A DNA stretch of 64,000 nt, taken from NCBI GenBank assembly GCA_041859475.1, contig JBHEKO010000113.1:11212-75211 (forward strand). Reading direction: 5' to 3'. Under the pieces are notes generated by a model. That model was not told where the DNA came from. It ran no database searches and saw only the letters and a program-made list of their open reading frames with translations. The position numbers and the translations under genes are program-made. Below are positions 1-64,000 of this stretch, in pieces (position 1 is the first letter of the stretch; each line of letters opens with the position of its first letter). Source of the DNA: Candidatus Hydrogenedentales bacterium. Lineage in GTDB: Bacteria > Hydrogenedentota > Hydrogenedentia > Hydrogenedentales > SLHB01.

Positions 1-327
1 GCCATAGAACCGGACGCGCGCGCGGACGCTGTCCCCGCCGCCCCCCGTCGCCCGGCAATCGATCAAAAACGGACGCGGCACACGCACGTCCCCGTCCAGC
101 GGTTGCTTGAACGCCTCCGCGAATGCCGGGTCCTGCGGCCCGCCCAGGCCATGCCCCAACAACCCCCGCAACACCGCGATGGGCTGTTCCGGCAACTCCG
201 GCGCCCAACGCGCCAACGCCAACGTCAGCCGCGCCCCCACTACAGGTAAATCAACGTCAAACAATGCCGTGCCCCCCGGCGATTCGCTGCGACTGCTAAA
301 TGTAATGCCGATTGATAAACCGGATGT

Positions 328-585
328 GTTTCAATGCCGTGCTACCCGGCGTTCCTTATCCATTTCTTTGTAGCGCCCGGCCTCCGTGCCGGGCGTCTTC
401 ACAACAGCCCCGTGCTACCCGGCGCGGTCCCAACACTAGGGTCTGGTTATGTCTATGCGTTCATTGTGGATGCAGTTTCAATGCCGTGCTACCCGGCGCG
501 GTCCCAACACAGGTCTTCCGGTCCTCAAGCATCTGCTGAAATCAGGCTAGTTTCAATGCCGTGCTACCCGGCGCGGTCCCAACAC
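328..585 (-). CRISPR. CRISPR array 1. It has 2 intact 36-nt repeats (475-510, 550-585) plus leader-distal degenerate or truncated copies (328-351, about 407-436). Spacers at 437-474 (38 nt) and 511-549 (39 nt).
   Basis: The direct repeat is GTTTCAATGCCGTGCTACCCGGCGCGGTCCCAACAC on the plus strand. Its minus-strand reading ends in ATTGAAAC, the canonical 8-nt crRNA 5' handle. It lies next to cas2 and RT-cas1. Repeat degeneracy is at the low-coordinate end, opposite the leader. Confidence 0.85.
373..396. other. Perfect 8-bp GC-rich stem (CGCCCGGC / GCCGGGCG, 374-381 with 388-395) and 6-nt loop, inside the 55-bp insert between two truncated repeats
   Basis: Read directly from the sequence. No U-tract follows on either strand. 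Confidence 0.4.
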
Positions 586-768
586 GACCCCTCTTGGGGG
601 CCCTTGTGGCGTAAGGAGTTAGCAAGTGTAAAACGCTTACGACCGTCAAGAGTTTCATTTACGTCCCTATTTTGCCCTATATCCCTGCGTAAGTCAAGTC
701 CTATCAATGGGTGCTAGCGACCGTTCCGTATTGGAGCGTTTTCGGGCTTTCTGAACGCCTCCGATGCT
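586..768 (-). promoter_or_regulatory. CRISPR leader 1. About 155 bp (587-740) are about 95% identical to 3149-3300.
   Basis: A conserved non-coding block lies immediately on the leader-proximal side of both arrays. It is relatively AT-rich. In the minus-strand sense it contains a conserved TTGACT -35-like hexamer, present in both copies. Confidence 0.55.
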
Positions 769-1053
769 TCATACGATATAGTATCCTCGTGTTGTCTGAA
801 TTAGCGTGTTGCCCTCGGTTTCGCATTGCTCGCGGCAGGTGGCGCATGCCGTGTACAGACGCAGGGAATCCTCGCCCTCTTTCATCTCTGCAGTGACGGC
901 TTCGCGCATCTGTTCCAGCGAGGCCTCGGTCACCCAGCATTCGAACACGCTCTTTTGGACGCGTACGCCGAAGCGCTCCATCACGCGCGCCACGCGCCGC
1001 AGCCGACGGGCGTCACGCACATCGTAACACGCAATCCAGAAGCGTTGCTCCAT
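769..1053 (-). CDS. cas2: CRISPR-associated endoribonuclease Cas2
   Basis: 94 aa. The N-terminus is MEQRFWIACYDVRDARRLRRVARVMERFGVRVQKSVFEC, the typical Cas2 pattern (YDV..R.R.....G.R.Q.SVF.C). It sits 6 nt downstream of cas1. Confidence 0.85.
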   Translation of the reverse strand: MEQRFWIACYDVRDARRLRRVARVMERFGVRVQKSVFECWVTEASLEQMREAVTAEMKEGEDSLRLYTACATCREQCETEGNTLIQTTRGYYIV

Positions 1054-1058
1054 GGGTT

Positions 1059-2980: not shown

Positions 2981-3035
2981 TTGTCCCCGCGCCTCCCCTC
3001 ATCCGTAGAAGAAAAACGCAAACACCTTTTGCCCC

Positions 3036-3147
3036 CAAAACATGGCGTGCTACCCGGCGCGGTCCCAACACGGGTGATGTTGGCGGCATGACCTATGGCC
3101 GCACTATCGAAGTTTCAATGCCGTGCTACCCGGCGCGGTCCCAACAC
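3036..3147 (-). CRISPR. CRISPR array 2. It has one intact repeat (3112-3147), one degenerate leader-distal repeat (3036-3071, 29/36 identity) and a single 40-nt spacer (3072-3111).
   Basis: Same repeat as array 1, same polarity, same degeneracy pattern. It lies immediately upstream (minus-strand sense) of the RT-cas1 start. Confidence 0.8.
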
Positions 3148-3300
3148 TCCCCCTCTTGGGGGTCCTTGCGGCGTAAGGAGTTAGCAAGTGTAAAACGCTT
3201 ACGACCGTCAAGAGTTTCATTTACGTCCCTATTTTGCCCCATATCCCTGCGTAAGTCAAGGCCTATCAAGGGGTGCTAGCGACCGTTCCGTATTGGAGCA
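3148..3300 (-). promoter_or_regulatory. CRISPR leader 2 (paralogous copy of leader 1)
   Basis: 3149-3300 align with 587-740 with about 7 mismatches. It occupies the same position relative to the first repeat. Confidence 0.55.
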
Positions 3301-33587: not shown

Positions 33588-33596
33588 CCTTCTGCC

Positions 33597-34061
33597 TCAC
33601 CTTCTCTTTAAAAAATACTCGTCGCTTCCTTTTTGCAGTCGAATGCCGTCTTTTTCGACGGATACGACTAGAAAAACGCCCAACGTCTCGCCAGTGCCAA
33701 CGGAAAAAGCGCGATTCAATTTCATGTCTTTTATGAAGGCGCGCAACTGTCCGTTTCGCGAGGATATCCCCATCAGTTGATAGCGCCCAGCCTCATTGAC
33801 CACTTTTCCCTCTGCGGAGTGATAGGTTCGAAAAATCGCTTTGCCTGTGGTAGCCGAAGAAACCTGTTCCATTGAAAGAGTCTCGAGGCGTTCCAGCGAC
33901 GTCACATCTTGCGCAATCTCCTGTGCGGCCTCGGCGCGGTTGGGTACCCAAGTTTTCTGCGTTAGCGTCAAGATGGAAAACCCCACGCTCAATAAGGTGT
34001 TCACAATGAGCACCCCGAGCAATAGTTTTTTTAGTCTTAGCTCCAAACGCCTAATACCCAC
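33597..34061 (-). CDS. PilP/GspC-like inner-membrane-anchored secretin-interacting protein
   Basis: 154 aa. N-terminal TM. Position between the PilO-like gene and the secretin. Confidence 0.35.
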   Translation of the reverse strand: MGIRRLELRLKKLLLGVLIVNTLLSVGFSILTLTQKTWVPNRAEAAQEIAQDVTSLERLETLSMEQVSSATTGKAIFRTYHSAEGKVVNEAGRYQLMGISSRNGQLRAFIKDMKLNRAFSVGTGETLGVFLVVSVEKDGIRLQKGSDEYFLKRR

Positions 34062-34608
34062 TCGTCTTCTCCGCGCGGATCTGGTATATCTTGGTTACAG
34101 ACACCGTGACGGAAATTGGCGGAGCCGTGCGGTTCGCTAACAACGACAGCGTCTCCGCATTCAAAAGGTGCTCGGAGCTTTGCAGCGCTTGCAAGAACTT
34201 AATCACGCTGTGGGCTTCACCGCGCGCACTTACTTCCACGCCGATACGCTCAAATCGGCCTTCCGTCTTTTTCGCCAATGGACGCACATTGGCAATATCG
34301 AGTCCCGCACTACGCGCCAAGCCGTCGACCTCCGAAAATAGCACAAGCATCGGGTCTTCAGTCGCCGGTCGTTCCTTAATCGCCTGTTGTACTTTGGCGT
34401 ATTCTCGTTCAATCGTCTCTCGGTGCGCGGCGAGAGTTTTCAGCTCCACCAGACGCAGCTCAAATTTGAGTGCAAGTTTATGCATCTCCGCCCAGTGCGA
34501 AATCAATGGTTCGCACACAACGATATATCCCAGCCCCAATGCCGCGACAATGAATGTCGTCGCCGCAATTCCACGCTCGCGCCGAGTCAAACGCCTCAGT
34601 TTAATCAT
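34051..34608 (-). CDS. PilO/GspM-like assembly protein
   Basis: 185 aa. N-terminal TM followed by a coiled-coil. Operon position. Confidence 0.4.
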   Translation of the reverse strand: MIKLRRLTRRERGIAATTFIVAALGLGYIVVCEPLISHWAEMHKLALKFELRLVELKTLAAHRETIEREYAKVQQAIKERPATEDPMLVLFSEVDGLARSAGLDIANVRPLAKKTEGRFERIGVEVSARGEAHSVIKFLQALQSSEHLLNAETLSLLANRTAPPISVTVSVTKIYQIRAEKTSGY

Positions 34609-36062
34609 TCACGCCCCGTCTTATCGGCAGCGGCCAGCCTGCATGTTACCTTAAACTCCACCAATTCGCCGTCGGCGTTTCTGGGCTTCGCGCATTGAAC
34701 TAATTCTGGTGCTTTGTACCGCTTCGATTTACGGATAACGTCGACAAATTGATATACCGCCGCGTATGACTTCGCTTCGCCGGACAATGTTATGATGCGG
34801 CGCGCATCATAGCGGAAGTTGTTGATGGCGATTTCCGGCGGGCTAATGTTGTACAGCTCCAAAATCGCTTGAAGAGGTAATGCAATTCCCGCACGCTCCG
34901 CCGAAAGCTTACGGAGTTGTTCTCGCTTCTCAGCCAAGTCGCTGACGGCGGCGCCGAATTGCGCAATTTCGTTCTGCGCCGTCTCCGCTCGCGTTCTCTC
35001 CAATGCAAACGAATAATACACCATGCCCACTAGCAACGCCGTTGTCCAAAGAAATGCCGCGCAAAGATGGATGAGCACGCGCGCAATCCGCCGCCGCAAG
35101 AGGCGTTTCTTTTCGCGCGTCGGCATGAGGTCGCAGATATTCTCGTCGTCGCTGGCCGCCAATGCGGCGCCAACGGCTATAAGCCCTGCGGCCGAGGTCG
35201 GCGCGGAACCGTTCAGGCCACTAATTCTCAATTCCGCCGCGCTGCGAAAAATGCGTTTGGAATCGCTCCACACGCCCGGTAAATCGTTCCGAAGAACATC
35301 ACCGATGTCGGAAAAAAGAAATATATCTACCTCGCCGCATTCCCCATCGCCTCGCCGCTTATCCAACGCCTCGGACTGGGCCAACATCCCCATCGCGTCA
35401 CCGTCCGGGGCGCTGCCGCGCGAAAATACGGGACGCCCCTCCGCGGAAACGCGGACGTACTCGTAATCATCGCCCGTAAGCGAAAGAAATGCCGTGGGCG
35501 TGGACCGATTAGCCTTCCGCGCTAAACGGCACAGCGACAAAGTTGATATTTCCACGGACGTAACGATGACACCCAGCGCCCGCAGCCGCTCGATATGACG
35601 CTGCACAGTATGCGCTTGAATCAGGACGACCAAAACCAGACTGTACCCGCGCTCGTCGTGTCCCGTCACTTCATAGCCGACGAGGCATTCTTCTATCGGC
35701 CACGGTGCGAGCGATGTGCATTCGTATCCGACCATCTGGGCAATTTGGGCGGGGATCGTTGTCGGAAGCGATATCCAGCGCAGAATCGCGTGTCGCCGCG
35801 GAAGGGACAGCGTGACGTTCGCCCCAGGACGGTAACCCCACTGCGACAGGGCGACTTTCTCCGCTCCCTCCTGCGCCGGGACGAACATTTCAGAAATCTT
35901 CAATATCCTTCGAGCATGGACAACACGGGCTAATCGATAGCCATCATCCCCAGTAGGCAGTACGCCAAACGCCAACGGATGCGAAAAGCCCCACGGCCGC
36001 CTACGTTTCACAGATTGTGGCGCAGCACTCTCGGGTTTGTCTAGAATTGCGTATCGCGCCAT
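34605..36062 (-). CDS. PilM-PilN fusion / GspL-like assembly protein
   Basis: 485 aa. N-terminal actin-like (PilM) region, an internal TM segment (VLIHLCAAFLWTTALLVGMVYY) and a periplasmic tail. Confidence 0.45.
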   Translation of the reverse strand: MARYAILDKPESAAPQSVKRRRPWGFSHPLAFGVLPTGDDGYRLARVVHARRILKISEMFVPAQEGAEKVALSQWGYRPGANVTLSLPRRHAILRWISLPTTIPAQIAQMVGYECTSLAPWPIEECLVGYEVTGHDERGYSLVLVVLIQAHTVQRHIERLRALGVIVTSVEISTLSLCRLARKANRSTPTAFLSLTGDDYEYVRVSAEGRPVFSRGSAPDGDAMGMLAQSEALDKRRGDGECGEVDIFLFSDIGDVLRNDLPGVWSDSKRIFRSAAELRISGLNGSAPTSAAGLIAVGAALAASDDENICDLMPTREKKRLLRRRIARVLIHLCAAFLWTTALLVGMVYYSFALERTRAETAQNEIAQFGAAVSDLAEKREQLRKLSAERAGIALPLQAILELYNISPPEIAINNFRYDARRIITLSGEAKSYAAVYQFVDVIRKSKRYKAPELVQCAKPRNADGELVEFKVTCRLAAADKTGRE

Positions 36063-37156
36063 TCAACAAGTTCCAACTCGCCGGACTCCCGAAAGACCAC
36101 TAGCTCACCTTCCGCTTGGGAGTTTGGATTCAATATCGTGACCTGCGTATAGAAACGAAACGCCGATGAGGTCAATCCCAACTCAATATCTGCTAATGCA
36201 AGCGATGTCAATTGGGCTTCAGACAGATACGTGGTCAGTTCGGTGATGTCGGCAAAAGGACGATCATCCTCGGTTCCGTCGAGTTTGTCTGCTCCGCGAC
36301 GACGCGCCAAAATTTCTCCGGCGATCGCGCGCGGGTCCCCCTCTCCCAAGTGGGCAACGCTTAATACCGTACTCAGAAGCGGTTCCGGCATAGTATTCAC
36401 GTTTAGCGCTCCATCTCCATACACCGTCAACATGTCGATTAGCCCCAACTGGAGACGCCCATCTTGGTTATCCACAGGAAGATAGATGTCGCCGTCGTCT
36501 TCGTTAGGGTCGAGCAGACCGTTGTGATTGGCGTCCTCGCCAAAAAACAGTTGAGACGTTACGCCCTCGACGAAAAGAAGCTCCTCAATCCGCTTAAGGC
36601 TCGCGTTCGCCGGAGAATACGCCGGCGTTTTGCGCGCATAAAAATCGCTCTCGTACGCCCCGGAATCGTCCGCGTCGCGCCAATCATTGATCGCCGTCGC
36701 GATTTCCGACGCGTTCGTCGATACCCCAGCCTCGAGTAACACCTCCGTCAGAATCGAAGGGGACGTCAGATTGATATTTAACTTGCCGCCCTCGTCTTGC
36801 GGGATCACGGACAACTCAAACGGATGCTTAAACCCTGGAAGCGTGCCTCCCGAGTCTAGCATAGTCGCGCTGGTAAATCTCAGACGTCGGCCCCATGGCT
36901 TCGCATAGCTTACCACCTCATTGTCCTCGTCCGAGCACAACCGTTCGAGCGCTAGGCGCGCCCCTGACGACAGCAATTCTCGCTCCTCCAACTCGACCTG
37001 AGCCCACAACTCGCGCCGTACGCTCAACTGCGACCGAGACATCAACGTCAGCGCCAAAAACGCCAAAAACGCTGTAATCCACAACGTCACCACAAGTACC
37101 GCGCCCTCGGTAGCGCGCCAACATTTCTGTTTTCTCACGGTGCTATACTCCCGCAC
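36041..37156 (-). CDS. gspK: Minor pseudopilin GspK-like
   Basis: 371 aa. N-terminal TM AVLVVTLWITAFLAFLALTL. Large periplasmic domain. It follows the J-like gene. Confidence 0.5.
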   Translation of the reverse strand: MREYSTVRKQKCWRATEGAVLVVTLWITAFLAFLALTLMSRSQLSVRRELWAQVELEERELLSSGARLALERLCSDEDNEVVSYAKPWGRRLRFTSATMLDSGGTLPGFKHPFELSVIPQDEGGKLNINLTSPSILTEVLLEAGVSTNASEIATAINDWRDADDSGAYESDFYARKTPAYSPANASLKRIEELLFVEGVTSQLFFGEDANHNGLLDPNEDDGDIYLPVDNQDGRLQLGLIDMLTVYGDGALNVNTMPEPLLSTVLSVAHLGEGDPRAIAGEILARRRGADKLDGTEDDRPFADITELTTYLSEAQLTSLALADIELGLTSSAFRFYTQVTILNPNSQAEGELVVFRESGELELVEWRDTQF

Positions 37157-37746
37157 GAAACAGGTAAAGTCCGCTGCATCTCAACGCCGTCCGCCAACGT
37201 CAACGAAACGATCACCGCCACCGGAAGCCCATCTTCATTCCACGTCTCAGCGATCTCGCCACTCTTACTTAGGTAATCAAAACGAAGCCCAGAAACCCTT
37301 GCCAACAACGGCGTTTCCGTTGACTGCCCCTCAAGAGCGCCCGTCGTCACAAACAGCGTTTCCCCACGCACAAGCTCCTCTACTCCGTCATCCGACGCGC
37401 GCAAGAAATAATTTGCCTGACTCCACACCGCCCCGCGACCGGCGCGTTGCTTTTCTCTGGATTCCAGCGTCGTAATTGCCAAGACCTCGCCCACAGCGTC
37501 CTCCGACTTCTCGACGAAGGCCGGCGTATTTTTGTCCATCTTTGCGGCGCACCGCACGTCCCGGGCCATGATGTCCAACGCCGCACCCCGCTCAGCCAAT
37601 GCCGCCTGATGTTTGCGTACGTTCTGCCACGTCTTTACACCCGCCCGAAGCCCCACGACAAGAATAGACATTAACATCGCAAATAACGCTATCGTCAGTA
37701 GCATTTCAACGAGGGTGAAACCCTTTTCGCTGCTACCCACCCACAT
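37135..37746 (-). CDS. gspJ: Pseudopilin GspJ-like (prepilin-type N-terminal cleavage/methylation domain)
   Basis: KGFTLVEMLLTIALFAMLMSIL. Confidence 0.5.
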   Translation of the reverse strand: MWVGSSEKGFTLVEMLLTIALFAMLMSILVVGLRAGVKTWQNVRKHQAALAERGAALDIMARDVRCAAKMDKNTPAFVEKSEDAVGEVLAITTLESREKQRAGRGAVWSQANYFLRASDDGVEELVRGETLFVTTGALEGQSTETPLLARVSGLRFDYLSKSGEIAETWNEDGLPVAVIVSLTLADGVEMQRTLPVSCGSIAP

Positions 37747-38173
37747 TTAGAATCGTCCGTAACGAATACGTCGGCCGTGTTTCGGAAGCGCCAGGTACGT
37801 GCTGGAAAACTGTAAGACACACAATAACAAATGGAGCTGTATCAGCAGGGGACTCGAATACGGCCTTCCAGGAATAATCTTCACAAGGAGCAGCAAAATC
37901 CCCGGTCATATCTTTTGTCTGCGAAGCCAAGGAGTGTTGCCGTAAAAACAAGAGCTGTCGTTCCGCGAGAAAACGCCCCGTCTCTCGCTCATTCAATGCG
38001 CTTTGCGACCGCGCGCAGCTGGACAGACTCCAAAGGAACGTTCCAAAGCCAGCGCCAATGATGGCCGTGGATACAAGAACTTCCATCAGAGCCACCCCGC
38101 GCGGCCTTGATGTACGAAGATTGCCCAGGCGCGTCAAGAAAGGACTATTACTCATCGCTACGTTTTTCCGCAT
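37733..38173 (-). CDS. gspI: Pseudopilin GspI-like
   Basis: RGVALMEVLVSTAIIGAGF, a prepilin-type N-terminal segment. Confidence 0.45.
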   Translation of the reverse strand: MRKNVAMSNSPFLTRLGNLRTSRPRGVALMEVLVSTAIIGAGFGTFLWSLSSCARSQSALNERETGRFLAERQLLFLRQHSLASQTKDMTGDFAAPCEDYSWKAVFESPADTAPFVIVCLTVFQHVPGASETRPTYSLRTILNVGG

Positions 38174-38720
38174 CCGCGCCGGAGCCCGTCACTGTTCCCC
38201 GAACGTCGTCCACCCAAGGACCAATCGATATTTTTCCCATACGTCCGTCACGGTCCGCCACCCAGACTATCGTCGCCTTCATTAAGCCGCTCGGCTCAAA
38301 GACTAACTGCGGCGGCCTGAATACTTGGCCACCCTGTTCGATCTTGTCCAACGAAACTCCTGACGGAAACTCCCGACGCTTGTCCCAAAACGCGTCACCA
38401 AAATTAGTGTATTTGACGGTCCGTCCGGCCCCTACCTCCTGGAGACGAAAAACATATTCCCGGGCGTCTTCGTCAACGCTCCACAAGACCTTTAACTGTC
38501 TATGCATAGCTTCCAGACGTGCCGTGCGAATTTCTTGCGCCAATCGCGCTGTTGCATCTTCAAGCCCTATGGACCTAAACATGCCACTAAACAGTGGCGT
38601 TACCGTTGCAGCTAGCAACGCAATCAACGCAGCCACCAGCAGCAACTCAACCAGCGTAAAGCCCCTATTAGAGCGATGGAGCAGCTTCCTTGTCTTTCTT
38701 GCGCACATTCGCAATATCAT
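38148..38720 (-). CDS. gspH: Pseudopilin GspH-like
   Basis: RGFTLVELLLVAALIALLAATV. Confidence 0.5.
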   Translation of the reverse strand: MILRMCARKTRKLLHRSNRGFTLVELLLVAALIALLAATVTPLFSGMFRSIGLEDATARLAQEIRTARLEAMHRQLKVLWSVDEDAREYVFRLQEVGAGRTVKYTNFGDAFWDKRREFPSGVSLDKIEQGGQVFRPPQLVFEPSGLMKATIVWVADRDGRMGKISIGPWVDDVRGTVTGSGADAEKRSDE

Positions 38721-39138
38721 CGTCGGTGTCTAACTGACCGTCCGGCCCCACAGAAATAATGTCGTAATCGACGATCAATTCCCCTGGAGAACGATACGTA
38801 AGAGAACGCTTCCACGGATCCAGCGGAACCTCCCGAAGATACGGCCCATGCCAAACATCTTCCTGGGCCAGCGCTGACGGCTTCGTGACCAAGGCCATAA
38901 GGCCTTCTTCGCTGGTGGGAAAACGACCAACGTCCAGCTCAAAATTGTCCAAAGCCGTAGCGACCGACTGAATTGATGCTTTCGCCGCTGTGATCTTCGC
39001 CCGCTCCGTCTTGCCCGCCATACGTGGCAGCGCAATCGCTGCGATCACTCCAATGATCACCACCACCAGCATCAGCTCAATCAGCGTAAACCCCCGACGA
39101 GCCTTCTCTTTTCGCCGCATGGCACTATATAGAATCAT
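38668..39138 (-). CDS. gspG: Major pseudopilin GspG
   Basis: RGFTLIELMLVVVIIGVIAAIALP, plus the GspG core DPWKRSLTYRSPGELIVDYDIISVGPDGQLDTDDD. Confidence 0.8.
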   Translation of the reverse strand: MILYSAMRRKEKARRGFTLIELMLVVVIIGVIAAIALPRMAGKTERAKITAAKASIQSVATALDNFELDVGRFPTSEEGLMALVTKPSALAQEDVWHGPYLREVPLDPWKRSLTYRSPGELIVDYDIISVGPDGQLDTDDDIANVRKKDKEAAPSL

Positions 39139-39314
39139 AGACGTTCCTCAGAGTATTGGCACCTAGTTCAAGCGGCTTGCCCCCAAAACTGTCCCACACA
39201 AACATGACGATTATTGCGTACACTCTCTTGTAGCACTGGGAATGGAGGAATGTCAATTAGACAATCCTCACCTATTTTACCCATAAACATCCCCCGCATA
39301 GCAGCGCGTTACCC

Positions 39315-40538
39315 CTACTCCACATTGACGACGTCGCCGAGAGAAAAGATAGGCAGGAGCATAGCCACTACAATGAAGCCGACCATGCCGCCCATGAGAA
39401 TGATCATGAGGGGCTCGAGAAGGGCCATGGCGGTCTTGACTTCGCGGTCAATCTCTTTTTCGTACTCGATGGCGACGTGATCGAGGGACTCTGCAAGTGT
39501 GCCGCTTTCTTCGCCGACGGCGATGACGCTCGTCAGCATTTGAGGAAACGGTGGCGCGGTCTCAATCGCTTGACTAAGCCGGGCGCCTTCGCGCAACGCG
39601 GTGCCCAGTCTTGCCGCCGCTTCGCGATAGTAGACATTCGTCAGCGTAGCAGCGGTAATACTCAATCCATGCACGATAGGTACACCACTTGCCAGCAGTG
39701 TGGCAAGCGTGCGGGCAAAGTCAGCGACCTGGCTCTTACAAACAATTCCGCTCAAGACCGGCAGATGCAGGACTAGAGCACTCCTGATGTGTTTGCCTCT
39801 ATCGGTCTTGAGAAAACGCATTAGGACAAAGAGTGTCAGCGCGCACCCCGGCAAAATCACTGGCCACCATATCTGTAGTCCATGACTAATCATTACCAGC
39901 GCCTGCGTCGGCCAAGGGAGTTGTTGTCCTGTATCTTTGAATACGCCGGTAAACATAGGCACCACAAAGGTGAGTAGCACTACGACGGTGGCTACGCCCA
40001 ATGAAATCATAACGGTGGGGTAGAGCATGGCCATTTTCACGCGCGCAATGAGTTCGTCTCGTTTTTCGCCGACTTCGGCCAAGCGAACCAAAGATTCCAC
40101 CAGTCTGCCGCTTTCCTCGCCAGCCCGAACAAGGCCCAAGTACATTGGCTCAAAAATCTGCGGATATTGGGAAAGCGCCTCGGCGAATGTCCGCCCCTCT
40201 TCCAAGTCCGCAAGCAGTCCGGCAGCAATACGGCGCCATGCGTGCTTTTCAAAACGTACCTGCAGTGTGCCCAGCGATGCCGAAAGCGTCAATCCTGCAC
40301 GTAGCAACGAGGCCAAGTCACGCGTCAACCGCGTTAATTCGTTGCGGCGCAGTCCCGTCCTCCATCCAAAACACAGCGAACGCCGCGAGAACCCCGACGA
40401 CTCGCTGTCCTCCACACGCAGTACATGGTAGCCTTTCGCCAACAGAATCGACGCGGCAGCCTGGGCAGAATCGGCCTGAATCTCACCGCGCTCCGAATTC
40501 CCCGGCTCGCGAATCGCCTCATAGATAAAAAGGCTCAC
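39315..40538 (-). CDS. gspF: T2SS inner-membrane platform protein GspF (PilC family)
   Basis: 407 aa. Duplicated GspF domain architecture with 3 TM segments. LSQYPQIFEPMYLGLVRAGEESGRL and GEESGTLAESLDHVA. Confidence 0.75.
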   Translation of the reverse strand: MSLFIYEAIREPGNSERGEIQADSAQAAASILLAKGYHVLRVEDSESSGFSRRSLCFGWRTGLRRNELTRLTRDLASLLRAGLTLSASLGTLQVRFEKHAWRRIAAGLLADLEEGRTFAEALSQYPQIFEPMYLGLVRAGEESGRLVESLVRLAEVGEKRDELIARVKMAMLYPTVMISLGVATVVVLLTFVVPMFTGVFKDTGQQLPWPTQALVMISHGLQIWWPVILPGCALTLFVLMRFLKTDRGKHIRSALVLHLPVLSGIVCKSQVADFARTLATLLASGVPIVHGLSITAATLTNVYYREAAARLGTALREGARLSQAIETAPPFPQMLTSVIAVGEESGTLAESLDHVAIEYEKEIDREVKTAMALLEPLMIILMGGMVGFIVVAMLLPIFSLGDVVNVE

Positions 40539-40552
40539 GCGCCGTTTCTCCC

Positions 40553-42076
40553 TTACGCCTGGGCTTCACGATCATCCTGCGTTACACGCAGTACTTCATC
40601 CAACGTCGTCTGACCGCGACTCGCCTTCGCCCAACCGTTGTCGCGCAATGTCTTCATACCGTTCGCCAGCGCCGCGCGCTTGATCAGCGATGCCGGCGCA
40701 CGATCCATGATTAGTCGGCGGATTTCATCGTCCATCATCAGCATTTCATAGATGGCCGTCCGCCCGAAATATCCCGAATGGCGGCACACGTCGCAGCCAC
40801 ACCCACGACGAAAACTGCTGAGGTCCGCCGTTCCGGGTTCAACGCCCATCTCGTTCAACGCCTCGTACACAGGAACATCAGGCTCGGCGCAATGTGGACA
40901 TACGACACGAACTAAGCGTTGTGCGATAAAAGATTCCACCGACGATGCCAGTAGGTATGGCTCAATGCCTATATCAACCAGACGCGGCGCAGCACCCGCC
41001 GCGTCGTTGGTATGCAACGTGCTGAACACTAGATGCCCTGTAAGCGCGCAACGAATCGCCAGTTCGGCCGTTTCGAAATCGCGGATTTCGCCAACCATCA
41101 TCACATCTGGATCGTGCCGCAGCATAGACCGCAGCCCACGTGCAAACGTAAACCCGATATCCGCGCGAACGTGCATTTGACAAATGCCCTCGATCTGATA
41201 CTCGACCGGATCTTCCACCGTGATAATCTTGCGCTCGACGCCATTAATGCGGCTTAAGCATGCATACAGCGTCGTCGTTTTCCCGCTACCCGTCGGTCCC
41301 GTCAGCAGAACAATCCCGTGAGGCTTCTTCAGCAACTCGCCAAAGCACACAATGTCATGCTCGCCGAAACCGATTGCCTCCAACCCCATCAGCACGTTGC
41401 TGCGCTGCAAAATACGAATGTTAATGCTTTCCCCGTGTGCGATTGGAATCACTGACACACGCAGGTCGAAATCTTTGCCGTCGATGCGAGCGCGAATGCG
41501 GCCGTCCTGCGGGAGCCGTCGTTCGGCAATGTCCATATTTGCCATAATCTTGATGCGCGACGTGATCGAATCGCGAAAATGACGAATCGAGTCCGGGATG
41601 TGCGCATCAAACAGAATGCCATCGATGCGATAGCGCACGCGCAAGTGACTTTCAAAAGGTTCGAAATGAATGTCCGTCGCGCGACTATTGTACGCATCGA
41701 CTACTAGCTGATTCACAAACTTGACGATCGATGCGTCGCCAGCGCTTTCATCCAATCCCGCGTCCTGAACATTTGCGCTCACGAGCTCAATATCACGGTT
41801 CTGGACCAGCGCCTCGAGTGTTTCCGCGCCCACCCCGTAGTGCGCGCGAATCGCCTCCGCGATCGCCTCCGCATCGGCGCGCTCCGCGCGAACTGAGCGC
41901 CCCAATGTCAATGTCAGTTCGTCCAGCACATCAACGCGATCTGGGTCGAGCATCGCCACGACCAATCCACCAGCACTATCGATCTCTAGTGGCACGATCC
42001 CGTAGTGAACCGCCACTCGCGGCGAAACCACATCAATCGCCTCGGGCGAAGACTTTAGCATTCTATCAATCGTCAT
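40553..42076 (-). CDS. gspE: T2SS ATPase GspE (PilB/GspE family)
   Basis: 507 aa. Walker [17 protein letters not shown]. Asp/His boxes. Tetracysteine CPHCAEP...CGCDVC zinc motif. Confidence 0.85.
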
Positions 42077-56811: not shown

Positions 56812-57816
56812 GTGTTGCCGTACAGCCGTTTCAAGTATATGGACCGAATAGGGAAAGGAGAGCCGAGGATGACGCGCTGGACCACCATCATGCTCACGGC
56901 GGGCTTGACCGTTGGATCGCTATTTGCCGACGGGAAAGCCGCTGCGGACTATGCCTGGACCACGGGCGATCCTCCGAGGGGAACCATTTCCCCAAACGAC
57001 GCCCAGGTCCTTTTAGCCCCAGGAAAGTCCAAGCAATTTACGGCCTATGAAATTGGGGACAACGACTGCAAGAAGGACACCTCCACAAACGAACTCTTTA
57101 CCGTGGCCGATGAAGTCCCCACTACCAAGGTGCGCTGGGGATTGGACCGCTCCTTTGGAACCCTCACACCGGCTTCCGGTGTAGGAACCTCCGTCACGTA
57201 CACTTCCCCGACGACGAGCGGGCCTTGGGTAAGGCTCACGCTGTACGTAGACGATTTGTCCGCCAATCCGCCAGGTGCTCATGATCCTGAGTATCCGGCC
57301 GATTTCGTAGATATTTACCAGGTTCTGCCGAATGGGGAAGATGTAGAGTGGCAAGACCACTTTTCCAAGGCACCACATGAAATCGGCGACAAGTTCAGCC
57401 CACATACAGTCTATTTCAAGAGTTTTTTGGGAGAACGCCAGAACGTAGATTTTTCCGGCCTCGTCATCACGGAATACCAAGGTTTTCAATTCGTTTCCTG
57501 TTCGGTGCCGAATTTATCAGTGGATGAAGTGATGCAAGGGCAAGAAGGCTGGAATGGAAATTGGACCATAAACGGGAGTAATCAGAGGAGTGAAAACGAC
57601 GAACACGGATTTAATCGAGATGCTTTAGGGGGCGATTGGCTAGGTACAGGAGAAGTGGTTATCAACCAGAGGATGAAGGTGACGTCTCCGGTAGTGGGCT
57701 CCACCTGGTTTGTGATCCATCAGTTGAAATTCCGGTTCAAGAATGAAGGTTTGCCACCCAATACGGAATATAACTGCTACGTAAGCAAGCACGGCGTCGC
57801 ATGCCCGGACTTTTAG
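56812..57816 (+). CDS. Secreted hypothetical protein
   Basis: Probable start at MTRWTTIMLTAGLTVGSLFA (56869). No recognisable domain. Confidence 0.4.
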   Translation: MLPYSRFKYMDRIGKGEPRMTRWTTIMLTAGLTVGSLFADGKAAADYAWTTGDPPRGTISPNDAQVLLAPGKSKQFTAYEIGDNDCKKDTSTNELFTVADEVPTTKVRWGLDRSFGTLTPASGVGTSVTYTSPTTSGPWVRLTLYVDDLSANPPGAHDPEYPADFVDIYQVLPNGEDVEWQDHFSKAPHEIGDKFSPHTVYFKSFLGERQNVDFSGLVITEYQGFQFVSCSVPNLSVDEVMQGQEGWNGNWTINGSNQRSENDEHGFNRDALGGDWLGTGEVVINQRMKVTSPVVGSTWFVIHQLKFRFKNEGLPPNTEYNCYVSKHGVACPDF

Positions 57817-57892
57817 TCAGTGAAAGACTCTCAACGGCTGCGGCTTTCGTGCGCTTCAAGAGAGGAACGCGACAAAACGAGGAGGTATCGAG

Positions 57893-58699
57893 ATGTTCGC
57901 TACATTTAAGGTGACAACACTGTTGGCTGTTTTGTTTAGCCTGCTGTGCCTTAGCCCGGCCCAGGCGGCCCCGCTTCCTGCGGACATCGAAGGTAAACGA
58001 GCCTTGAACATATCCGAAGAGGAAGAGCGCCATGCGATTATGGCGGTGGGTGGCCTTACCTCGGAATATGAAGTTGCAATTTCGTACGAGAGTGCGATGC
58101 CCAGCGACCCGAATCCGGAAAAGCGAATTTCCTACCGGATTCGACGCAACGAAACGTTGGGCATGGCGCTCTCGATGTTCAAGGGCGGCACGAACGGGAT
58201 GCTCGAGGCCAAGCGCATTCGAAACGTGCTGTGCGTCGTATACAATACACCGCCCGGCGTCGTGAATCCGCTGGACTGCAAGGTCTCACTCAAGCTCGAA
58301 AACGTCACCGCGTGGGAAGCGTTTAAAACGCTCGGGAAAACCATCAATACATTGCCCCAGTTTGCCAAGCGCCCCGCAGCGCTGGTGAAAACGACTGTTC
58401 CCATCGGATTTGGAAAAGATCGCGCCGTGCCCCCTGTTTTGTACAAAGAGAAGTGCATTACGCTGAACCTGACCGATGTCACGGCGCGCGAAGCGGCGTG
58501 CGCGATTGTCGAGGCCGCCCCGTTCGAAATGAAGTTCCAATACATACATGGCGACGAGAACCCAAACAGTGGCCACTACCAGGACACCCTTTACATACAG
58601 GTGCTCCAGAACGGAAAGCCAGTAAGCACGGAGCCCTTGACTAAGGAAGAAGAGGAGTTCTGGCGCGCGGAAATTAAGGACGGTCTGGCACGGCCCTAG
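57893..58699 (+). CDS. Secreted hypothetical protein
   Basis: Signal peptide MFATFKVTTLLAVLFSLLCLSPAQA. A decayed copy of its 5' end lies at 58741-58850. Confidence 0.45.
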   Translation: MFATFKVTTLLAVLFSLLCLSPAQAAPLPADIEGKRALNISEEEERHAIMAVGGLTSEYEVAISYESAMPSDPNPEKRISYRIRRNETLGMALSMFKGGTNGMLEAKRIRNVLCVVYNTPPGVVNPLDCKVSLKLENVTAWEAFKTLGKTINTLPQFAKRPAALVKTTVPIGFGKDRAVPPVLYKEKCITLNLTDVTAREAACAIVEAAPFEMKFQYIHGDENPNSGHYQDTLYIQVLQNGKPVSTEPLTKEEEEFWRAEIKDGLARP

Positions 58700-58740
58700 A
58701 AAAAGCGTGCGGAAAGGGAGACGGCAGAGCGACGACCATA

Positions 58741-58850
58741 CACCGGAGGACAACGCCGTTGGCTGTTTTGGCCTGCTGTGCTTGTGTCGGCGCAGGCGGC
58801 CCCGTTTCCCGAGGACATCGAAGAAAAACGGGCCCTGAACGGCTAGCCGG
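58741..58850 (+). pseudogene. Degenerate duplicate (about 80% nt identity) of the 5' signal-peptide region of 57893-58699, frameshifted and truncated
   Basis: GACAACGCCGTTGGCTGTTTTGGCCTGCTGTGC...GGCGGCCCCGTTTCCCGAGGACATCGAAGAAAAACGGGCCCTGAAC aligns with 57914-58015. Confidence 0.45.
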
Positions 58851-59012
58851 AGGTGGCCTAACGAAATGTGCCTATCTCCGAACTACTCAAGAAGTATCCG
58901 CTGCTTTATCTGGCCTTCTTGGTGGCCTGTCCTCACTGCTTCTCTGCGAGTGGTGTCCGACGGTTTGACAAAGCAAGCCTGCAACCAGATTGATTCGGGT
59001 GGCCTCGGGCGA

Positions 59013-60581
59013 TTACACAAACACGGGGTCGGTGACGACGGGCATGACGCAGACGGCTTCTTCTCTTGCGCCGTCGAGTCGGTTTTGTTCGTGGGCGAGC
59101 ATGGCGCAACGGACGGCGTCGATGATGTGGTCGTTGCCTTTGGAGTAGACGACGTTGCCGTTTTGCAGGGTGTAGGTGTGGGTGGTGAATTGGTCTTCCA
59201 CCTCCCCATCGTCGGCGGGCAGCACGAGTTGCCTGCGTTGCAGCGCGCCGTTGATGAGACTCGTCATCAGTTCCTTGGTGCGTTTCTTTACCTCCCGTCC
59301 GTCGCGTATGGCCAGCGTGGTCATGCCGCCGAAATCATAGCCGTGCAGGCGCCCTTCGAGTTGGAGCGGCTTGTACTTGTCCAGCGCGAGCAGTTCCTGC
59401 ACGACGGCGAGCCCGTTGCCGCCGTTGTCCACGCCGATCCCCACCGGCGTGAAGTACCGTTCCAACAGCGCGATCGTCTGCGCGATGTGCGGATACGTGA
59501 CGTGTTCCATATGCACGCGCAGAACGAGCGTCAGGACCTTCCGTTCAGCGACCTCGCTCTCGCGAAACACCACGAGTTCCGTTGGGTCGTTGGTGTACCC
59601 GAGGTCGCCGCCGATCCAGAACACGCCCGTCTGCGGCATGAGGTTGAGGAGCATTTCCAGGCGGTCATGCGCGGCCTCCTCGGTCTCGCAATCGCGCAAC
59701 TCGCCGCCCGTGATCTCGAGTTTCCGGTACTCGGGCACGTCCTGTCTACACAGCCCGAGATACTCCACGTTGAACGCGCCGTAACTGGGCTTGCCGTGTT
59801 CGCCCGCCACCTCGTGTTGCCATCCCGCCGTATCGCGCCCGCCGTAGAACTCGAGCAGCTCCGCTTCGCGTGCGGGCGACCAATTCGGATTGATCCACGA
59901 CGGCCAACGAAACACGCGGAACTGCGTCGACGACGTGAGCCGGTAATACGTGGTGTCCCGCAGCCCGTTCGGCGTCGAGTAGATGCGCAGCGTGCCGTCC
60001 GCGTTGAGGCATTGCCGCAACGCTTTCCACGCACGTTCGGACAGCCACGCGCCTTCGTCCACCCAGATGCGGTCCACATGCAATGACCGAAACGCGTCGC
60101 CGTACGGACCCGCGGGCCGAAAGTACAGCACCGCACCGTTCGCGAATTCGATGCGGAAATACGGCTTGCGATGAATTTTCGGTTTGCCGTACTGGGTGGT
60201 CGCCACGCTCTTCATGAGCAGCGGGTTTGCGTCGAGTTGGAACTCGAACTCCTCGATGATGGTGTCCAGATGCCCTTGCTGCGGCGCGGCAATGAGTCCT
60301 TGTCCGCCGGTCGTGATGAAGGCGTAATGCAACGCGGCGGTGGACAGGGCAATCGTTTTGCCTACGCCACGGCCGTCGAGGTGGATGATGTTCTTCTCCG
60401 GGGCGAGTAGGTCTTCCGTCTGGTGCGGCCAATACTCACGCGGCGAGCCATCGCGGTTGCGCAGGTAATGGCGCCCCCACGACGCGGGATTTGTCAGCAC
60501 TTCGCGCAGACGTCGCTGTTCCTCGCGCGTCAATGAGTTCAAATCAGCGCCTCCCGTATCGCACTCCTTACCGTTGCCCAT
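59013..60581 (-). CDS. Phage terminase large subunit
   Basis: 522 aa. N-terminal ATPase Walker A HLDGRGVGKT. C-terminal RNaseH-like nuclease region with NDHIIDAVRCAM. Confidence 0.75.
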   Translation of the reverse strand: MGNGKECDTGGADLNSLTREEQRRLREVLTNPASWGRHYLRNRDGSPREYWPHQTEDLLAPEKNIIHLDGRGVGKTIALSTAALHYAFITTGGQGLIAAPQQGHLDTIIEEFEFQLDANPLLMKSVATTQYGKPKIHRKPYFRIEFANGAVLYFRPAGPYGDAFRSLHVDRIWVDEGAWLSERAWKALRQCLNADGTLRIYSTPNGLRDTTYYRLTSSTQFRVFRWPSWINPNWSPAREAELLEFYGGRDTAGWQHEVAGEHGKPSYGAFNVEYLGLCRQDVPEYRKLEITGGELRDCETEEAAHDRLEMLLNLMPQTGVFWIGGDLGYTNDPTELVVFRESEVAERKVLTLVLRVHMEHVTYPHIAQTIALLERYFTPVGIGVDNGGNGLAVVQELLALDKYKPLQLEGRLHGYDFGGMTTLAIRDGREVKKRTKELMTSLINGALQRRQLVLPADDGEVEDQFTTHTYTLQNGNVVYSKGNDHIIDAVRCAMLAHEQNRLDGAREEAVCVMPVVTDPVFV

Positions 60582-60871
60582 ACCAACCTCACGAGCGCCT
60601 GTTCGATGTCCGGTGTCTGCGCTTCCTCGCGCGCCTCAGCCCGCAGCGCAATGGCGGCCTCCTCGAGCGCGGTCCACTCCGGGTACTTTTGCGAGGCGGC
60701 CTCCGCGCGGGCTAATGCGTCGTCTATGCGCCCCGCGACGAGTTCGGCCCCCAACGCGACGAGCGTCAACCCCGCGCGCAGCACAGCGGCTTCGTTGGCC
60801 TTGAGCACGTCAGCGGGGTTCATCGGCGGCCTCCTGTTTCGCGGCCCAGCGGTCCAGCGCCTCGAGAGCAT
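60539..60871 (-). CDS. Hypothetical protein upstream of terminase (phage small ORF)
   Basis: 110 aa. No motif. Overlaps the terminase start. Confidence 0.25.
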   Translation of the reverse strand: MLSRRWTAGPRNRRPPMNPADVLKANEAAVLRAGLTLVALGAELVAGRIDDALARAEAASQKYPEWTALEEAAIALRAEAREEAQTPDIEQALVRLVWATVRSAIREALI

Positions 60872-61082
60872 CGGTCAAGCGTTCACCGATGCCGCACAAC
60901 CGTTCGGCGTCCGGGTGATTGGTTTGTGCCAGTGCCGCGTTGGATTCGCGCACGTACTCCGGCGCGTAGCGGTTTACGGTGTGGATGGCGTTCACGACGC
61001 GGTCCGGGGGGCGGCTGTGCGCGCATCCGGCGGACATGCAAAGGACGCCAAGGGCAATAACGGCGGACCTACTCAGCGGCAT
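60810..61082 (-). CDS. Small lipoprotein
   Basis: MPLSRSAVIALGVLCMSAGC lipobox. ATG at 61082-61080. Confidence 0.3.
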   Translation of the reverse strand: MPLSRSAVIALGVLCMSAGCAHSRPPDRVVNAIHTVNRYAPEYVRESNAALAQTNHPDAERLCGIGERLTDALEALDRWAAKQEAADEPR

Positions 61083-61182
61083 GTAGCGCTCCTTCCCGGG
61101 ACTTGACTTCCTCCCCCACACAGAGCGTGTATGTGCTCACGCGGCGGCACGGGGTCGCCGTGAAAACGCAAAGAGGAGAGCG

Positions 61183-61590
61183 ATGATGGAAATGACAAAG
61201 GACCTCACCGTGCGCGACGCGGCACAGGTGTATCTGGAACATCTGCGGGCGCAGGGGAAGAAAGAGCGGACTCTGTACACGTACTCGCGCGATCTGGAAC
61301 AGATGGAGGCCTTCTTCGGTGCGGACCGGAAACTCGCGGCCATCCTGCCTGCGCACGTAGGGAAGTTTCTGAAAAGTGACGAGCTGCTCCGGCTGCCCAA
61401 CGGAACCGAGCGCGCCAAGCCCACGGTGGACAAGACCGTGCGCGTGCTGCGCATGTTCTTCTTGTGGGCGAAAGACACAGGACGTATCGAGAAGCTGCCG
61501 CTGCCCAAGGACCTGCCCATGGGCCGAAGCCTGGAGAAGGAGAACCGCGATGCCGACGGCGACTGCGCTGACGCTTCTGCCGAATCCTGA
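61183..61590 (+). CDS. Stand-alone phage-integrase N-terminal SAM-like (core-binding) domain protein
   Basis: 135 aa. AAQVYLEHLRAQGKKERTLYTYSRDLEQMEAFFG ... RVLRMFFLWAKDTGRI. There is no catalytic domain. The 3' end overlaps the integrase start out of frame. Confidence 0.45.
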   Translation: MMEMTKDLTVRDAAQVYLEHLRAQGKKERTLYTYSRDLEQMEAFFGADRKLAAILPAHVGKFLKSDELLRLPNGTERAKPTVDKTVRVLRMFFLWAKDTGRIEKLPLPKDLPMGRSLEKENRDADGDCADASAES

Positions 61591-62485
61591 GCCGCTGCAC
61601 GTTGCCGTGGACGCTTTCGCCCGGCGGCTCGAAGCGCAAGGGGCCTCACCGCGCACCGTGTCCGCGTACACGCGCGACCTTGAGCGGGTGGCGTCCGTAC
61701 TGGCCGCGCGGCAACCGGGGCTCGCTGTGGGCGATGTGACGCCCGCGCTGCTGGACGACGTGCTCAGCAGTCCGGCCATGATGGCGGAGACAAAAGGCGC
61801 GCCCTGCTCGCCCGCGACGTTGCATCGTCTCAAGGCGGCCGTGCGCTCGTTCTTCGCGTGGGCGGAAGAGACTGGGGTGATTGCCTCGAATCCCGCGCGC
61901 TTCGTTCGGCTGCCGCGGCTCCATCCCAAACCGCCGGCGTTCCTCACCGAACGCGAGAAGCGCCAATTGCTCAAGACGCTGCGCCAGACGGACACGCGCG
62001 AGGCAAGACGCGACCGCGTCATTATCGAGATGTTTCTTGGCACAGGCATCCGATTGCAGGAACTCGTGAACCTCGATGTGGACGATGTGGACCTCGACGC
62101 GAAACACATCCGCATTGTGGGCAAAGGCAACGTGCCGCAAGTGAAGTTTCTCAAAACAGACCTCCGTTCAATACTGCGCAGTTATTTGTCCGTTCGACGT
62201 CGCATGGGCTCGGGCGAGACGACGGCATTGTTCCTGTCCAACAGGGATACGCGCCTCACCTCACGGCAAGTGGCGCGGCGTCTCGATGTTTGGTTAAAGG
62301 CCGCGGGCATCAACAAGCACCTCGGTCCGCACGCGCTACGCCACACGTTTGCCACGCACCTCTACGCGAAGTCCGGCGACATCCTCATCGTGCAGCGCGC
62401 GCTCGGCCACGCCAGTCTGTCCACAACGCAGGTGTACACCCACCTTGTGGACGGCGCGCTGGAGAATGCGATCGAACGGCTGTGA
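61550..62485 (+). CDS. Tyrosine recombinase/integrase (XerC/XerD-like)
   Basis: Start MPTATALTLL. N-terminal SAM-like domain AFARRLEAQGASPRTVSAYTRDLERV. Catalytic region GTGIRLQELVNLDVDDVD, HALRHTFATHL, LGHASLSTTQVYTH (R..HxxR..Y). Confidence 0.75.
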   Translation: MPTATALTLLPNPEPLHVAVDAFARRLEAQGASPRTVSAYTRDLERVASVLAARQPGLAVGDVTPALLDDVLSSPAMMAETKGAPCSPATLHRLKAAVRSFFAWAEETGVIASNPARFVRLPRLHPKPPAFLTEREKRQLLKTLRQTDTREARRDRVIIEMFLGTGIRLQELVNLDVDDVDLDAKHIRIVGKGNVPQVKFLKTDLRSILRSYLSVRRRMGSGETTALFLSNRDTRLTSRQVARRLDVWLKAAGINKHLGPHALRHTFATHLYAKSGDILIVQRALGHASLSTTQVYTHLVDGALENAIERL

Positions 62486-62809
62486 TGAATCCATAGCGCC
62501 CGCTACGCTGGGTTGTGCGTTCGTGGTTCGCATCGGCAGACTCCGTCCGAACAGCCGTGCTGGTCCAGCATTTCCGTCAAGCGCCTTATGTTCTCCCAGG
62601 CCACTTCATTCGCCCGAAGCAATGTGGCGGTCTGCGCCCGCAATTCCTTGATAACCTCAGCCAACGGGCATTGCTCCGAACCGCAGTGTGCTCTCATTGA
62701 TGATGACTTTCATTTGGAGCGCCGCGGTCCTTTGGTCCGCTTCCCGCCGCCGAATCGGATGGTGTAGCTCAGGCGGATGCCTTTGCCGAGAATCCAGGTA
62801 ACGAGCGTC

Positions 62810-63367
62810 TTAAACATCGGCCACGTCCTTGCAGTATCGGTTCCAGTTGGCGATGTACTCGGCGGCCGTCCCTTTCCCTGCAGGCGTGTTGTACCAACGC
62901 TTCCAGTACGCCGCCTGGTCTGCGAGGGATTCAGGAATCGCTCCGGGCACGCGGTAGTAATGCAGCCGCGCGAAAAGCGCGCCGACCTTGTCGTTGTCGT
63001 CCAGGCGCAGCGCCCACAACAGCGCGTCCATCGGGATGAGGTCCGGCCAGGTCACCGGCGCATGCGGGTCGGCGAACAACCACTGCGTCGCGCGCGCCAA
63101 CATCTCTGGCCGTGCGCGCAGATACGTCAACGATGCGGCAACCGAGCCCGGCTCCACTTGCCACTTGCTGAACCCGCCCACCTTTCCCTCGAATCGCGGA
63201 GAACGTTGCCGTTCCCACGTCAGGCCGCTTTCCTGCGCGGCGGTGCCGAACAGAAGTCTTGCCGTGCGGTCCACGTACCCCGGCGTTGGCGGCGTCGCGC
63301 CGTATACCGTCTTCGCGCAGCCCTGGCAGAGCCGCCAGATACGCCGCGCGTGTTCTACCTCAACCAT
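62810..63367 (-). CDS. Hypothetical protein (mobile-element cargo)
   Basis: 185 aa. No confident motif; FGTAAQESGLTW is faintly lysozyme/transglycosylase-like. Confidence 0.3.
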   Translation of the reverse strand: MVEVEHARRIWRLCQGCAKTVYGATPPTPGYVDRTARLLFGTAAQESGLTWERQRSPRFEGKVGGFSKWQVEPGSVAASLTYLRARPEMLARATQWLFADPHAPVTWPDLIPMDALLWALRLDDNDKVGALFARLHYYRVPGAIPESLADQAAYWKRWYNTPAGKGTAAEYIANWNRYCKDVADV

Positions 63368-63970: not shown

Positions 63971-64000
63971 TTCCGAAAGCGCGAGAACGTCCTTCCTGCT

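Follow-up and report, generated by a model that had tools for sequence, protein, structure and literature searches.

A decayed gene fragment beside a broken prophage end in a Hydrogenedentota genome: possibly two independent neighbours

Does a short, decayed copy of a host gene lying beside phage DNA mark the place where the phage was inserted? The question is raised by a 64,000-nt stretch of DNA (the window) from a Hydrogenedentota metagenome-assembled genome (MAG). An intact gene for a 268-aa protein is followed there by a degenerate copy of part of itself (the relic), a spacer and the terminase end of a phage (Table 1). An earlier note on this DNA proposed that a paralogous host gene had been truncated by insertion of the phage-derived segment. 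The explanation that we favour, at about even confidence, is that two independent neighbours meet here: an old pseudogene relic and the end of a truncated or rearranged prophage, the relic being a bystander and not a product of the phage event. Our inference is that the relic came from tandem duplication or allele displacement and the phage break from deletion or rearrangement.

Table 1 Features of the host-phage junction and its surroundings (positions in the window).
Feature	Position	Strand	Basis or remark
268-aa secreted-protein gene, intact	57893-58699	+	ORF with Sec signal peptide; source of the repeat
Copied segment of the 268-aa gene (codons 8-39), reference for the repeat	57913-58009	+	Local and three-way alignment
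Native 3' flank of the 268-aa gene	58700-58748	+	Conserved with L001 to at least 58721, weakly to about 58745
Relic: decayed, start-less, frameshifted copy of codons 8-39, direct orientation	58749-58840	+	Local and three-way alignment, MAFFT, translations
Spacer, 153 nt	58841-58993	.	GC 0.536; no significant similarity found
Last phage-homologous bases, 3' flank of terL	58994-59012	-	Common to L004 and L005; collinearity break here
Large terminase gene terL, intact, 522 aa	59013-60581	-	Pfam Terminase_6N and Terminase_6C; phrog_2; 92% aa identity to L003
Two small conserved phage ORFs, 110 and 103 aa, upstream of terL	60539-61121	-	tblastn conservation
Integrase module, divergent from terL	61183-62485	+	Pfam Phage_integrase and Phage_int_SAM_1; phrog_1 for both ORFs
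Second variable spot of the phage	62484-62752	.	Homology lost here in all relatives (blastn end points)
Further phage genes	62753-64000	-	Collinear with relatives to the window end
185-aa phrog_3108 protein	62810-63367	-	PHROG match

The 268-aa protein has an N-terminus that reads as a Sec signal peptide (MFATFKVTTLLAVLFSLLCLSPAQA, followed by AP), the AQA-AP cleavage site having been placed by eye from the sequence. Pfam and PHROG searches with this protein gave no match, and its family is small, with just 4 clusters in a set of 5.8 billion proteins. Another Candidatus Hydrogenedentales MAG has the closest orthologue (P0002, 78% aa identity), at locus L001. By blastn, the two loci are homologous at the nucleotide level over 57836-58721 and nowhere else; in the alignment, weak similarity reaches about 58745. 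The flanks are not syntenic with L001, which retains a fragment of the 334-aa ORF (w334) upstream of the 268-aa gene. A distant family member, P0003, has the same upstream partner. As a fragment of this partner persists in L001 and the partner accompanies P0003, the 268-aa gene forms a pair of host genes with it. The DNA farther to the left has a type II secretion cluster of the host and additional genes that are not of phage type. We rejected the idea that these left-hand genes are phage cargo or a replaced structural module: they have no PHROG hits, they adjoin the type II secretion cluster, and the pair of w334 and the 268-aa gene is conserved in distant genomes.

The duplicate reported in the earlier note was confirmed by local alignment of the region 57836-58721 with 58722-59012 (291 nt after the gene). 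The relic and the gene aligned with a score of 98, as against 19.9 ± 2.5 (maximum 34) for 500 shuffles. The pair was also listed by the repeat search (families D4 and D19), and MAFFT concurred. Of the 92 aligned bases, 78 are the same (84.8%); counting 5 gap positions lowers the identity to about 80%, the value given previously for an extent of 58741-58850, which proved too wide. One 4-nt and one 1-nt deletion in the relic make it frameshifted. The copied part contains the hydrophobic core of the signal peptide, the cleavage site and 15 residues more. It is thus a copy of the signal-peptide region but not of the whole 5' end of the gene, as the similarity does not reach codons 1-7, the start codon among them, or the ribosome-binding site (Shine-Dalgarno region). 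Homology is sharp at both ends of the relic, and a TAG stop codon comes shortly after it (58844-58846). When 58841-59012 was aligned leniently, with gaps allowed, to the rest of the gene, the score did not exceed that of shuffles. A dispersed signal-peptide-encoding repeat, which the earlier note had set against its own reading, was considered and rejected: the window holds two copies of the repeat and no third, the repeat is absent from approximately 135 fetched loci, and among the 5.8 billion proteins none outside the four-cluster family shares the N-terminus of the 268-aa protein.

We compared the relic, the gene and the L001 orthologue over 92 columns. Identity was 84.8% between relic and gene, 82.6% between gene and orthologue, and 78.3% between relic and orthologue. 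Private changes comprised 8 substitutions and 2 deletions in the relic and 4 substitutions in the gene, and the relic evolves at about twice the rate of the gene. The relic agrees with the L001 orthologue at 4 sites whose state the gene has since lost. The relic is old, because its divergence from the neighbouring gene (15%) comes close to that shown by the orthologue of another MAG (17%). Judged from these distances, the relic and the gene would have split roughly half-way back to the split of species with 78% identical proteins, or the relic would be a different allele. It is somewhat surprising that a neutral relic of 92 nt should have lasted about half as long as two species have been apart, and descent from a displaced allele eases this difficulty.

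Two origins can be proposed for the relic. In a partial tandem duplication, the duplicated unit would be 57913-58748, from codon 8 to about 49 nt past the stop codon; with a unit starting at codon 8, the second copy would have had neither promoter nor start codon from birth. The relic begins directly where the conserved 3' flank of the 268-aa gene stops, and this start, at codon 8, resembles such a junction. Similarity, same orientation, broken frame and a faster branch are likewise found, as in the relic of a partial tandem duplication. Alternatively, an incoming allele may have been joined illegitimately at codon 8 of the resident allele, which was displaced. The second copy would then have decayed by the 8 private substitutions and the 2 frameshifting deletions, losing all after codon 39. 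Displaced T6SS effector/immunity modules are reportedly found in Vibrio cholerae. In HFIR, or sequential allele displacement (PMC3240628), an intact incoming gene is likewise followed by a start-less resident leftover at a sharp illegitimate junction, and divergence between the copies reflects allelic, not temporal, distance; unlike in HFIR, there is no sign here of transformation or of upstream anchoring homology. An HFIR-like displacement and tandem duplication may be two equally good origins of the relic.

The phage origin of the DNA to the right of the copy, stated in the earlier note, was borne out. The segment 58994-64000 is phage DNA carrying terL, a tyrosine integrase and the phrog_3108 protein, with 78-84% nucleotide identity to phage contigs. 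Its relatives are a phage of a related MAG (L003), loci of JGI/ENA metagenomes (L004, L005 and L053-L066) and, more distantly, 41 IMG/VR contigs. The integrase module consists of a 135-aa ORF resembling an integrase N-terminus, which overlaps a tyrosine recombinase with an XerC/D-type SAM-like N-domain; this ORF pair is kept in nearly all relatives. At the second variable spot, several relatives have a 444-aa DNA methyltransferase (phrog_1008, L003:1849-3183). As collinearity with the relatives holds up to position 64000, the phage element runs on past the window. The phage belongs to a temperate lineage that is common in Hydrogenedentota and present across several phyla. A 17/19 inverted match prompted a search for a self-targeting CRISPR spacer against terL; no spacer matched the phage part or the phage loci, and the match was attributed to chance.

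The left limit of the phage DNA was examined against the gene order of the relatives. Phage homology stops at 58994-59020 in every comparison, including those with 15 close relatives, at most about 20 nt past the terL stop codon. In the relatives, terL is followed by the portal gene and then by the gene of a 1,518-aa MuF-domain protein. The terL-portal order is found in all 43 of the earlier loci that reach past terL (3 contigs and 40 of the 41 IMG/VR loci) and, among 80 metagenome loci with enough sequence past terL, in nearly all. The single exception among the IMG/VR loci, L051, is an internal-deletion variant of the phage family. No portal, MuF or later phage gene was found anywhere in the window, and the protein collection contained no portal from the source contig; the two NCBI candidates that were tested belong to another assembly.

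Three of the relatives are integrated in host DNA. L059 (276-290 kb of a 457-kb contig) and L060 (367-380 kb of a 396-kb contig) have terL 90% and integrase 83% identical to those of the window, and their integrase side is also collinear with it. In L044, host Usp and Na+/H+ exchanger genes lie about 2 kb past the 3' end of the integrase. terL and portal are adjacent in all three. Given this adjacency in about 100 related loci, integrated ones included, the break in the window is internal to the phage and not an att end. The adjacency in integrated relatives further indicates that the attachment site of the lineage is not in the terL-portal spacer, and therefore that the junction did not arise by normal integration. 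The left boundary proposed in the earlier note is thus correct as the limit of phage DNA in the window, at approximately 58994-59013, and incorrect as an insertion boundary.

Other marks of an attachment site were sought. The phage end at this break is not the attP-proximal one expected of an attL or attR junction. Within 58.6-64 kb there are neither direct nor inverted repeats of the att kind, and hence none connecting 58.6-59.1 kb with 59-64 kb; the element has its right end outside the window. Searches of the window for tRNA, tmRNA and Rfam families were negative. The 268-aa gene, intact without any phage-supplied part, does not look like a gene-end target. Phage integration can duplicate tRNA 3' ends at att sites, and the window resembles such cases in having a short partial host-gene copy beside phage DNA. 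Att-site duplicates, however, flank the element, are nearly identical over the core and abut an attP-derived arm, whereas the two copies here lie together on one side of the phage, at a distance of 831 nt and with 15% divergence, next to an internal phage point.

Thus, the DNA from about 58994 rightwards would be the integrase-terminase end of a temperate phage whose portal, MuF and remaining structural module are missing at this locus. As collinearity is broken inside the terL-portal spacer, this prophage end was probably made by deletion or inversion and is not the attL of an integrase-mediated insertion. Deletion is supported by L051, a deletion derivative in the same phage family. An end point that spares the whole terL ORF to within 20 nt is a priori unlikely for a random deletion.

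The truncation of a paralogue by phage insertion, as the earlier note had it, does not agree with the structure of the copy. The remnant of such a paralogue would keep the start codon and ribosome-binding site, which the copy lacks. Nor does the copy extend to where the insertion would have taken place: it stops 153 nt short of the phage DNA. The terminase gene does not follow it directly either, as 172 nt separate the relic end (58840) from the terL stop (59013), 153 of them like neither the gene nor the phage relatives. An amended model would have the phage integrated after codon 39 of a paralogue or tandem copy, with 58841-58993 as a remnant of the other (tail/lysis-side) phage end, a later internal deletion reaching to the terL-portal spacer, and the 3' part of the paralogue on the far side of the element. 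In its favour, relic and phage DNA do stand in the right order at a distance of just 153 nt, the spacer matches nothing and so could be of phage origin, internal deletions occur in the family (L051), and the element runs beyond 64000. The model is nevertheless unlikely, since it leaves the abrupt start at codon 8 and the missing start codon and ribosome-binding site unexplained and needs two events where one suffices. The GC content of the spacer (0.536) is moreover host-like, that of the phage part being 0.634, the intactness of the phage genes points to an event much more recent than the relic, and P0001 is the only family member from the source assembly among the predicted proteins, in a family of 4 clusters in all.

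The age of the phage break was estimated from its genes. Relative-rate counts gave 11 non-synonymous and 57 synonymous lineage-specific changes in terL, and 10 and 57 in that of the L003 phage. terL shows no relaxed constraint and is full length to its stop codon. All retained phage ORFs are full length compared with those of the relatives, so that the decay of a defective prophage remnant is not seen here; the missing modules of one are, with terL, the integrase and the phrog_3108 protein present and the portal, MuF and later genes absent from the window. As the phage genes in the window are all intact, either the truncation is very recent or the phage is complete and was split by rearrangement or assembly. 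The event that cut the phage is recent. With an old relic and a recent cut, the two are unlikely to be two sides of one event. An insertion as the common cause of both, as the earlier note had it, is accordingly hard to reconcile with a relic diverged about as much as the orthologue of another species and a terL without relaxed constraint.

The same divergence bears on a templated patch, in which repair of the prophage-truncating break would have included a template switch to the gene nearby, yielding the 92-nt copy. The copy is short, sharp-edged and in direct orientation, its source is only 831 nt away, and a rearrangement break point adjoins it. Divergence of 15% with two deletions is far too much for a recent break, though, and the relic has the ancestral (orthologue) state at the 4 sites since changed in the gene; it also lies 153 nt off the break and not at it. 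We consider this explanation highly unlikely.

An assembly artefact would also account for intact phage genes. The contig would then be a chimera of a host contig (GC about 0.53) and a phage contig (GC about 0.63) joined near 58.9-59.0 kb, and the relic in such a chimera would simply be host intergenic DNA. The source is a MAG, GC climbs by about 10 points across the region, and the phage of the related MAG is on its own 44.6-kb contig. De Bruijn graphs branch where strain variants differ, and the break is exactly at a module boundary where strain variants differ. Near the junction, however, there is no repeat long enough to mislead an assembler: the two copies share exact runs of at most 15 nt (family D19 reaches 22 nt with 2 mismatches), and the spacer has no second copy. 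The related phages are, furthermore, bona fide Hydrogenedentota prophages with GC above that of their hosts (L044). A chimera is accordingly improbable, to about the same degree as the amended insertion.

The place of the break within the phage is a site of variation. In many relatives, variable cargo lies directly after the terL stop codon, often antiparallel to terL. The cargo is a reverse transcriptase with a PRTase effector (retron-like) in L044, Fic/DOC in L012 and L045, a methyltransferase in L029, HTH-Peptidase_M78 in L136 and several unknowns elsewhere. The break thus falls at the only spot close to terL at which foreign DNA is tolerated by functional phages, and this coincidence makes a purely random deletion end point somewhat less likely. 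The cargo hot spot hints at a non-random process, and the location agrees with any of three scenarios: a functional phage that was recently rearranged, an assembly graph that branched between strain variants, or exchange at the hot spot.

A more specific proposal is that the break is not accidental: the recombination-prone terL-portal cargo site would have been exchanged with the host chromosome, or would have carried a captured host-gene fragment (the relic and the 153-nt spacer) from an earlier host. We consider this highly unlikely, as we do its version in which the relic and spacer are terL-portal cargo, a homologous-gene fragment from an earlier related host, whose homology helped placement. 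The relic would fit as cargo in being antiparallel to terL at the hot spot after it, and near-equidistance in the three-way comparison is compatible with a xenologous origin. Against capture, there is no portal within 59 kb after the break, the spacer is host-like in GC, nothing similar occurs in any relative, and after a single crossover in the 92 nt of homology, the gene upstream of the relic would not be whole. If the break were non-accidental, the junction would record host-gene capture or homology-guided placement by a phage hot spot.

Taken as a relic and an independently broken prophage, the locus consists entirely of familiar features, namely a fragment of a pseudogene, a prophage that is defective or rearranged, and a P2/P4-type cargo hot spot (PMC9122126). 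Like defective (cryptic) prophages formed by deletion, it has an integrase, a terminase and accessory ORFs in the chromosome, lacks portal, head and tail genes, and differs from the host in composition. Unlike them, its genes show no decay and terL is spared to within 20 nt of its stop; the label 'remnant' follows from one break only, with the right half of the element outside the window. P2/P4 phage hot spots carry accessory and defence genes between conserved core genes (PMC9122126), as the terL-portal spacer of the relatives carries interchangeable cargo and contains the break in the window. In contrast to these hot spots, the window has the terL flank alone, followed by host DNA in place of cargo and portal.

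Both features are everyday ones in bacterial genomes and have small weight for biology at large. For annotation, no att site should be placed at 58.85 kb as the bound of the phage DNA, and the phage DNA should be taken neither for an intact prophage nor as a guide to an integration target. A short duplicate beside phage DNA is, by itself, no evidence of insertion. The comparison set does expose a terL-portal cargo hot spot in a phage lineage spanning several phyla.

Minor observations concern the spacer and the gene. blastn, blastn-short and tblastx detected no homologue of 58841-58993 in the window or the approximately 135 fetched loci. Neither the junction nor the spacer contains a terminator, a promoter or a stable fold (fold z = 0.19). 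One weak promoter-like match lies inside the 268-aa gene, at 58219-58246. The 8-mer GGTGGCCT occurs twice in the spacer (58852 and 58921), just beyond it at 58998, and in the gene at 58049. These four sites make up four of the five copies of GGTGGCCT in the window, for which 1.7 would be expected over its whole length.

The locus of the 268-aa secreted-protein gene is reshuffled in both the window and the related Hydrogenedentales MAG. In the locus of that MAG carrying the orthologue (L001), the upstream partner gene is reduced to a 33-aa fragment (L001:9726-9818), the full homologue of which lies at 56812-57816 of the window. The 8-mer GGTGGCCT was found three times within 154 nt of the junction between this gene's decayed copy and the phage DNA (58852, 58921, and 58998) and once inside the 268-aa gene (58049). 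The window contains five copies in all, these four among them, against an expectation of 1.7 for the whole 64 kb.

The prophage type with an integrase divergently adjacent to the large terminase gene (terL) is unusually widespread, and its portal protein is remarkably conserved. When the portal of the phage contig from the related MAG (L003) was used as a protein query, it matched over 500 clusters at 69-76% amino acid identity, spread over widely differing bacteria and in many cases located on megabase contigs; named examples are Dde_0918 of Oleidesulfovibrio alaskensis G20, Armatimonadota MAGs, and Pontiellaceae. The spacer between terL and portal is a cargo hot spot in this family, and in relatives with a filled spacer the cargo begins directly 3' of the terL stop codon. 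The cargo includes a retron-like reverse transcriptase with PRTase-CE/wHTH, Fic/DOC with an AbiEi-like domain, a methyltransferase, and HTH-Peptidase_M78, together with several unknown proteins. A deletion variant was also detected in a related phage (L051:1-1142), in which terL is fused beyond residue ~451 to a sequence located 8.7 kb further downstream in the close relative L032; portal and MuF were lost through this fusion.

All relatives lose homology at a second variable spot, which in several of them contains a 444-aa DNA methyltransferase (phrog_1008). The integrase is preceded by an overlapping integrase-related ORF. This pair is not a frameshift error, because it is kept in nearly all relatives.

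Coordinates of features in the window and in related phage loci.
Feature	Location	Strand	Remark
CRISPR adaptation locus	window 250-3300
CRISPR mini-array 1	window ~328-585		36-nt repeat GTTTCAATGCCGTGCTACCCGGCGCGGTCCCAACAC
CRISPR mini-array 2	window ~3036-3147		36-nt repeat GTTTCAATGCCGTGCTACCCGGCGCGGTCCCAACAC
Reverse transcriptase-Cas1 fusion	window 1478-2980 and 1059-1673	minus	split in two overlapping ORFs
Type II secretion gene cluster	window 31290-42076	minus	complete-looking
135-aa integrase-related ORF	window 61183-61590		fits N-terminal part of integrase profile phrog_1
Full tyrosine recombinase	window 61376-62485		5' end overlapped by 135-aa ORF in a different frame
Second variable spot of phage	window 62484-62752; L003:1826-3442		directly 3' of integrase gene end
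terL-portal cargo loci	L044:7669-11512; L012:4031-5445; L029:3832-5405; L136:183-2167; others

Elsewhere in the window, the type II secretion cluster encodes a secretin, the GspE ATPase, GspF, pseudopilins, and PilN/PilO/M-like proteins. The cluster gives way at 42-53 kb to a series of large proteins, none of which matched a Pfam or PHROG entry.

At the left end, two CRISPR mini-arrays, some repeats of which are degenerate, are located on both sides of the reverse transcriptase-Cas1 fusion, each followed by a copy of one 189-nt sequence (549-737 and 3111-3299, 96% identical). A gene at 769-1053, also between the arrays, is probably cas2. The GC content of this locus is 0.60-0.64, compared with 0.53 in its neighbourhood. 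Comparison of its spacers with the phage gave no matches. An inverted 19-nt match, CGACGTCTGCGCGAAGTGC (17-19 of 19 identical), links the fusion ORF (2581-2599) to the 5' end of terL (60497-60515); though unexpected for 64 kb, it probably arose by chance because it lies within GC-rich coding DNA. The degenerate part of the first array also contains a GC-rich hairpin-like motif, GCGCCCGGCCTCCGTGCCGGGCG (352-400), which may be a REP-like dispersed element; it was found twice more, in opposite orientations, in the related MAG locus (L001:1595-1624 and 1909-1937).
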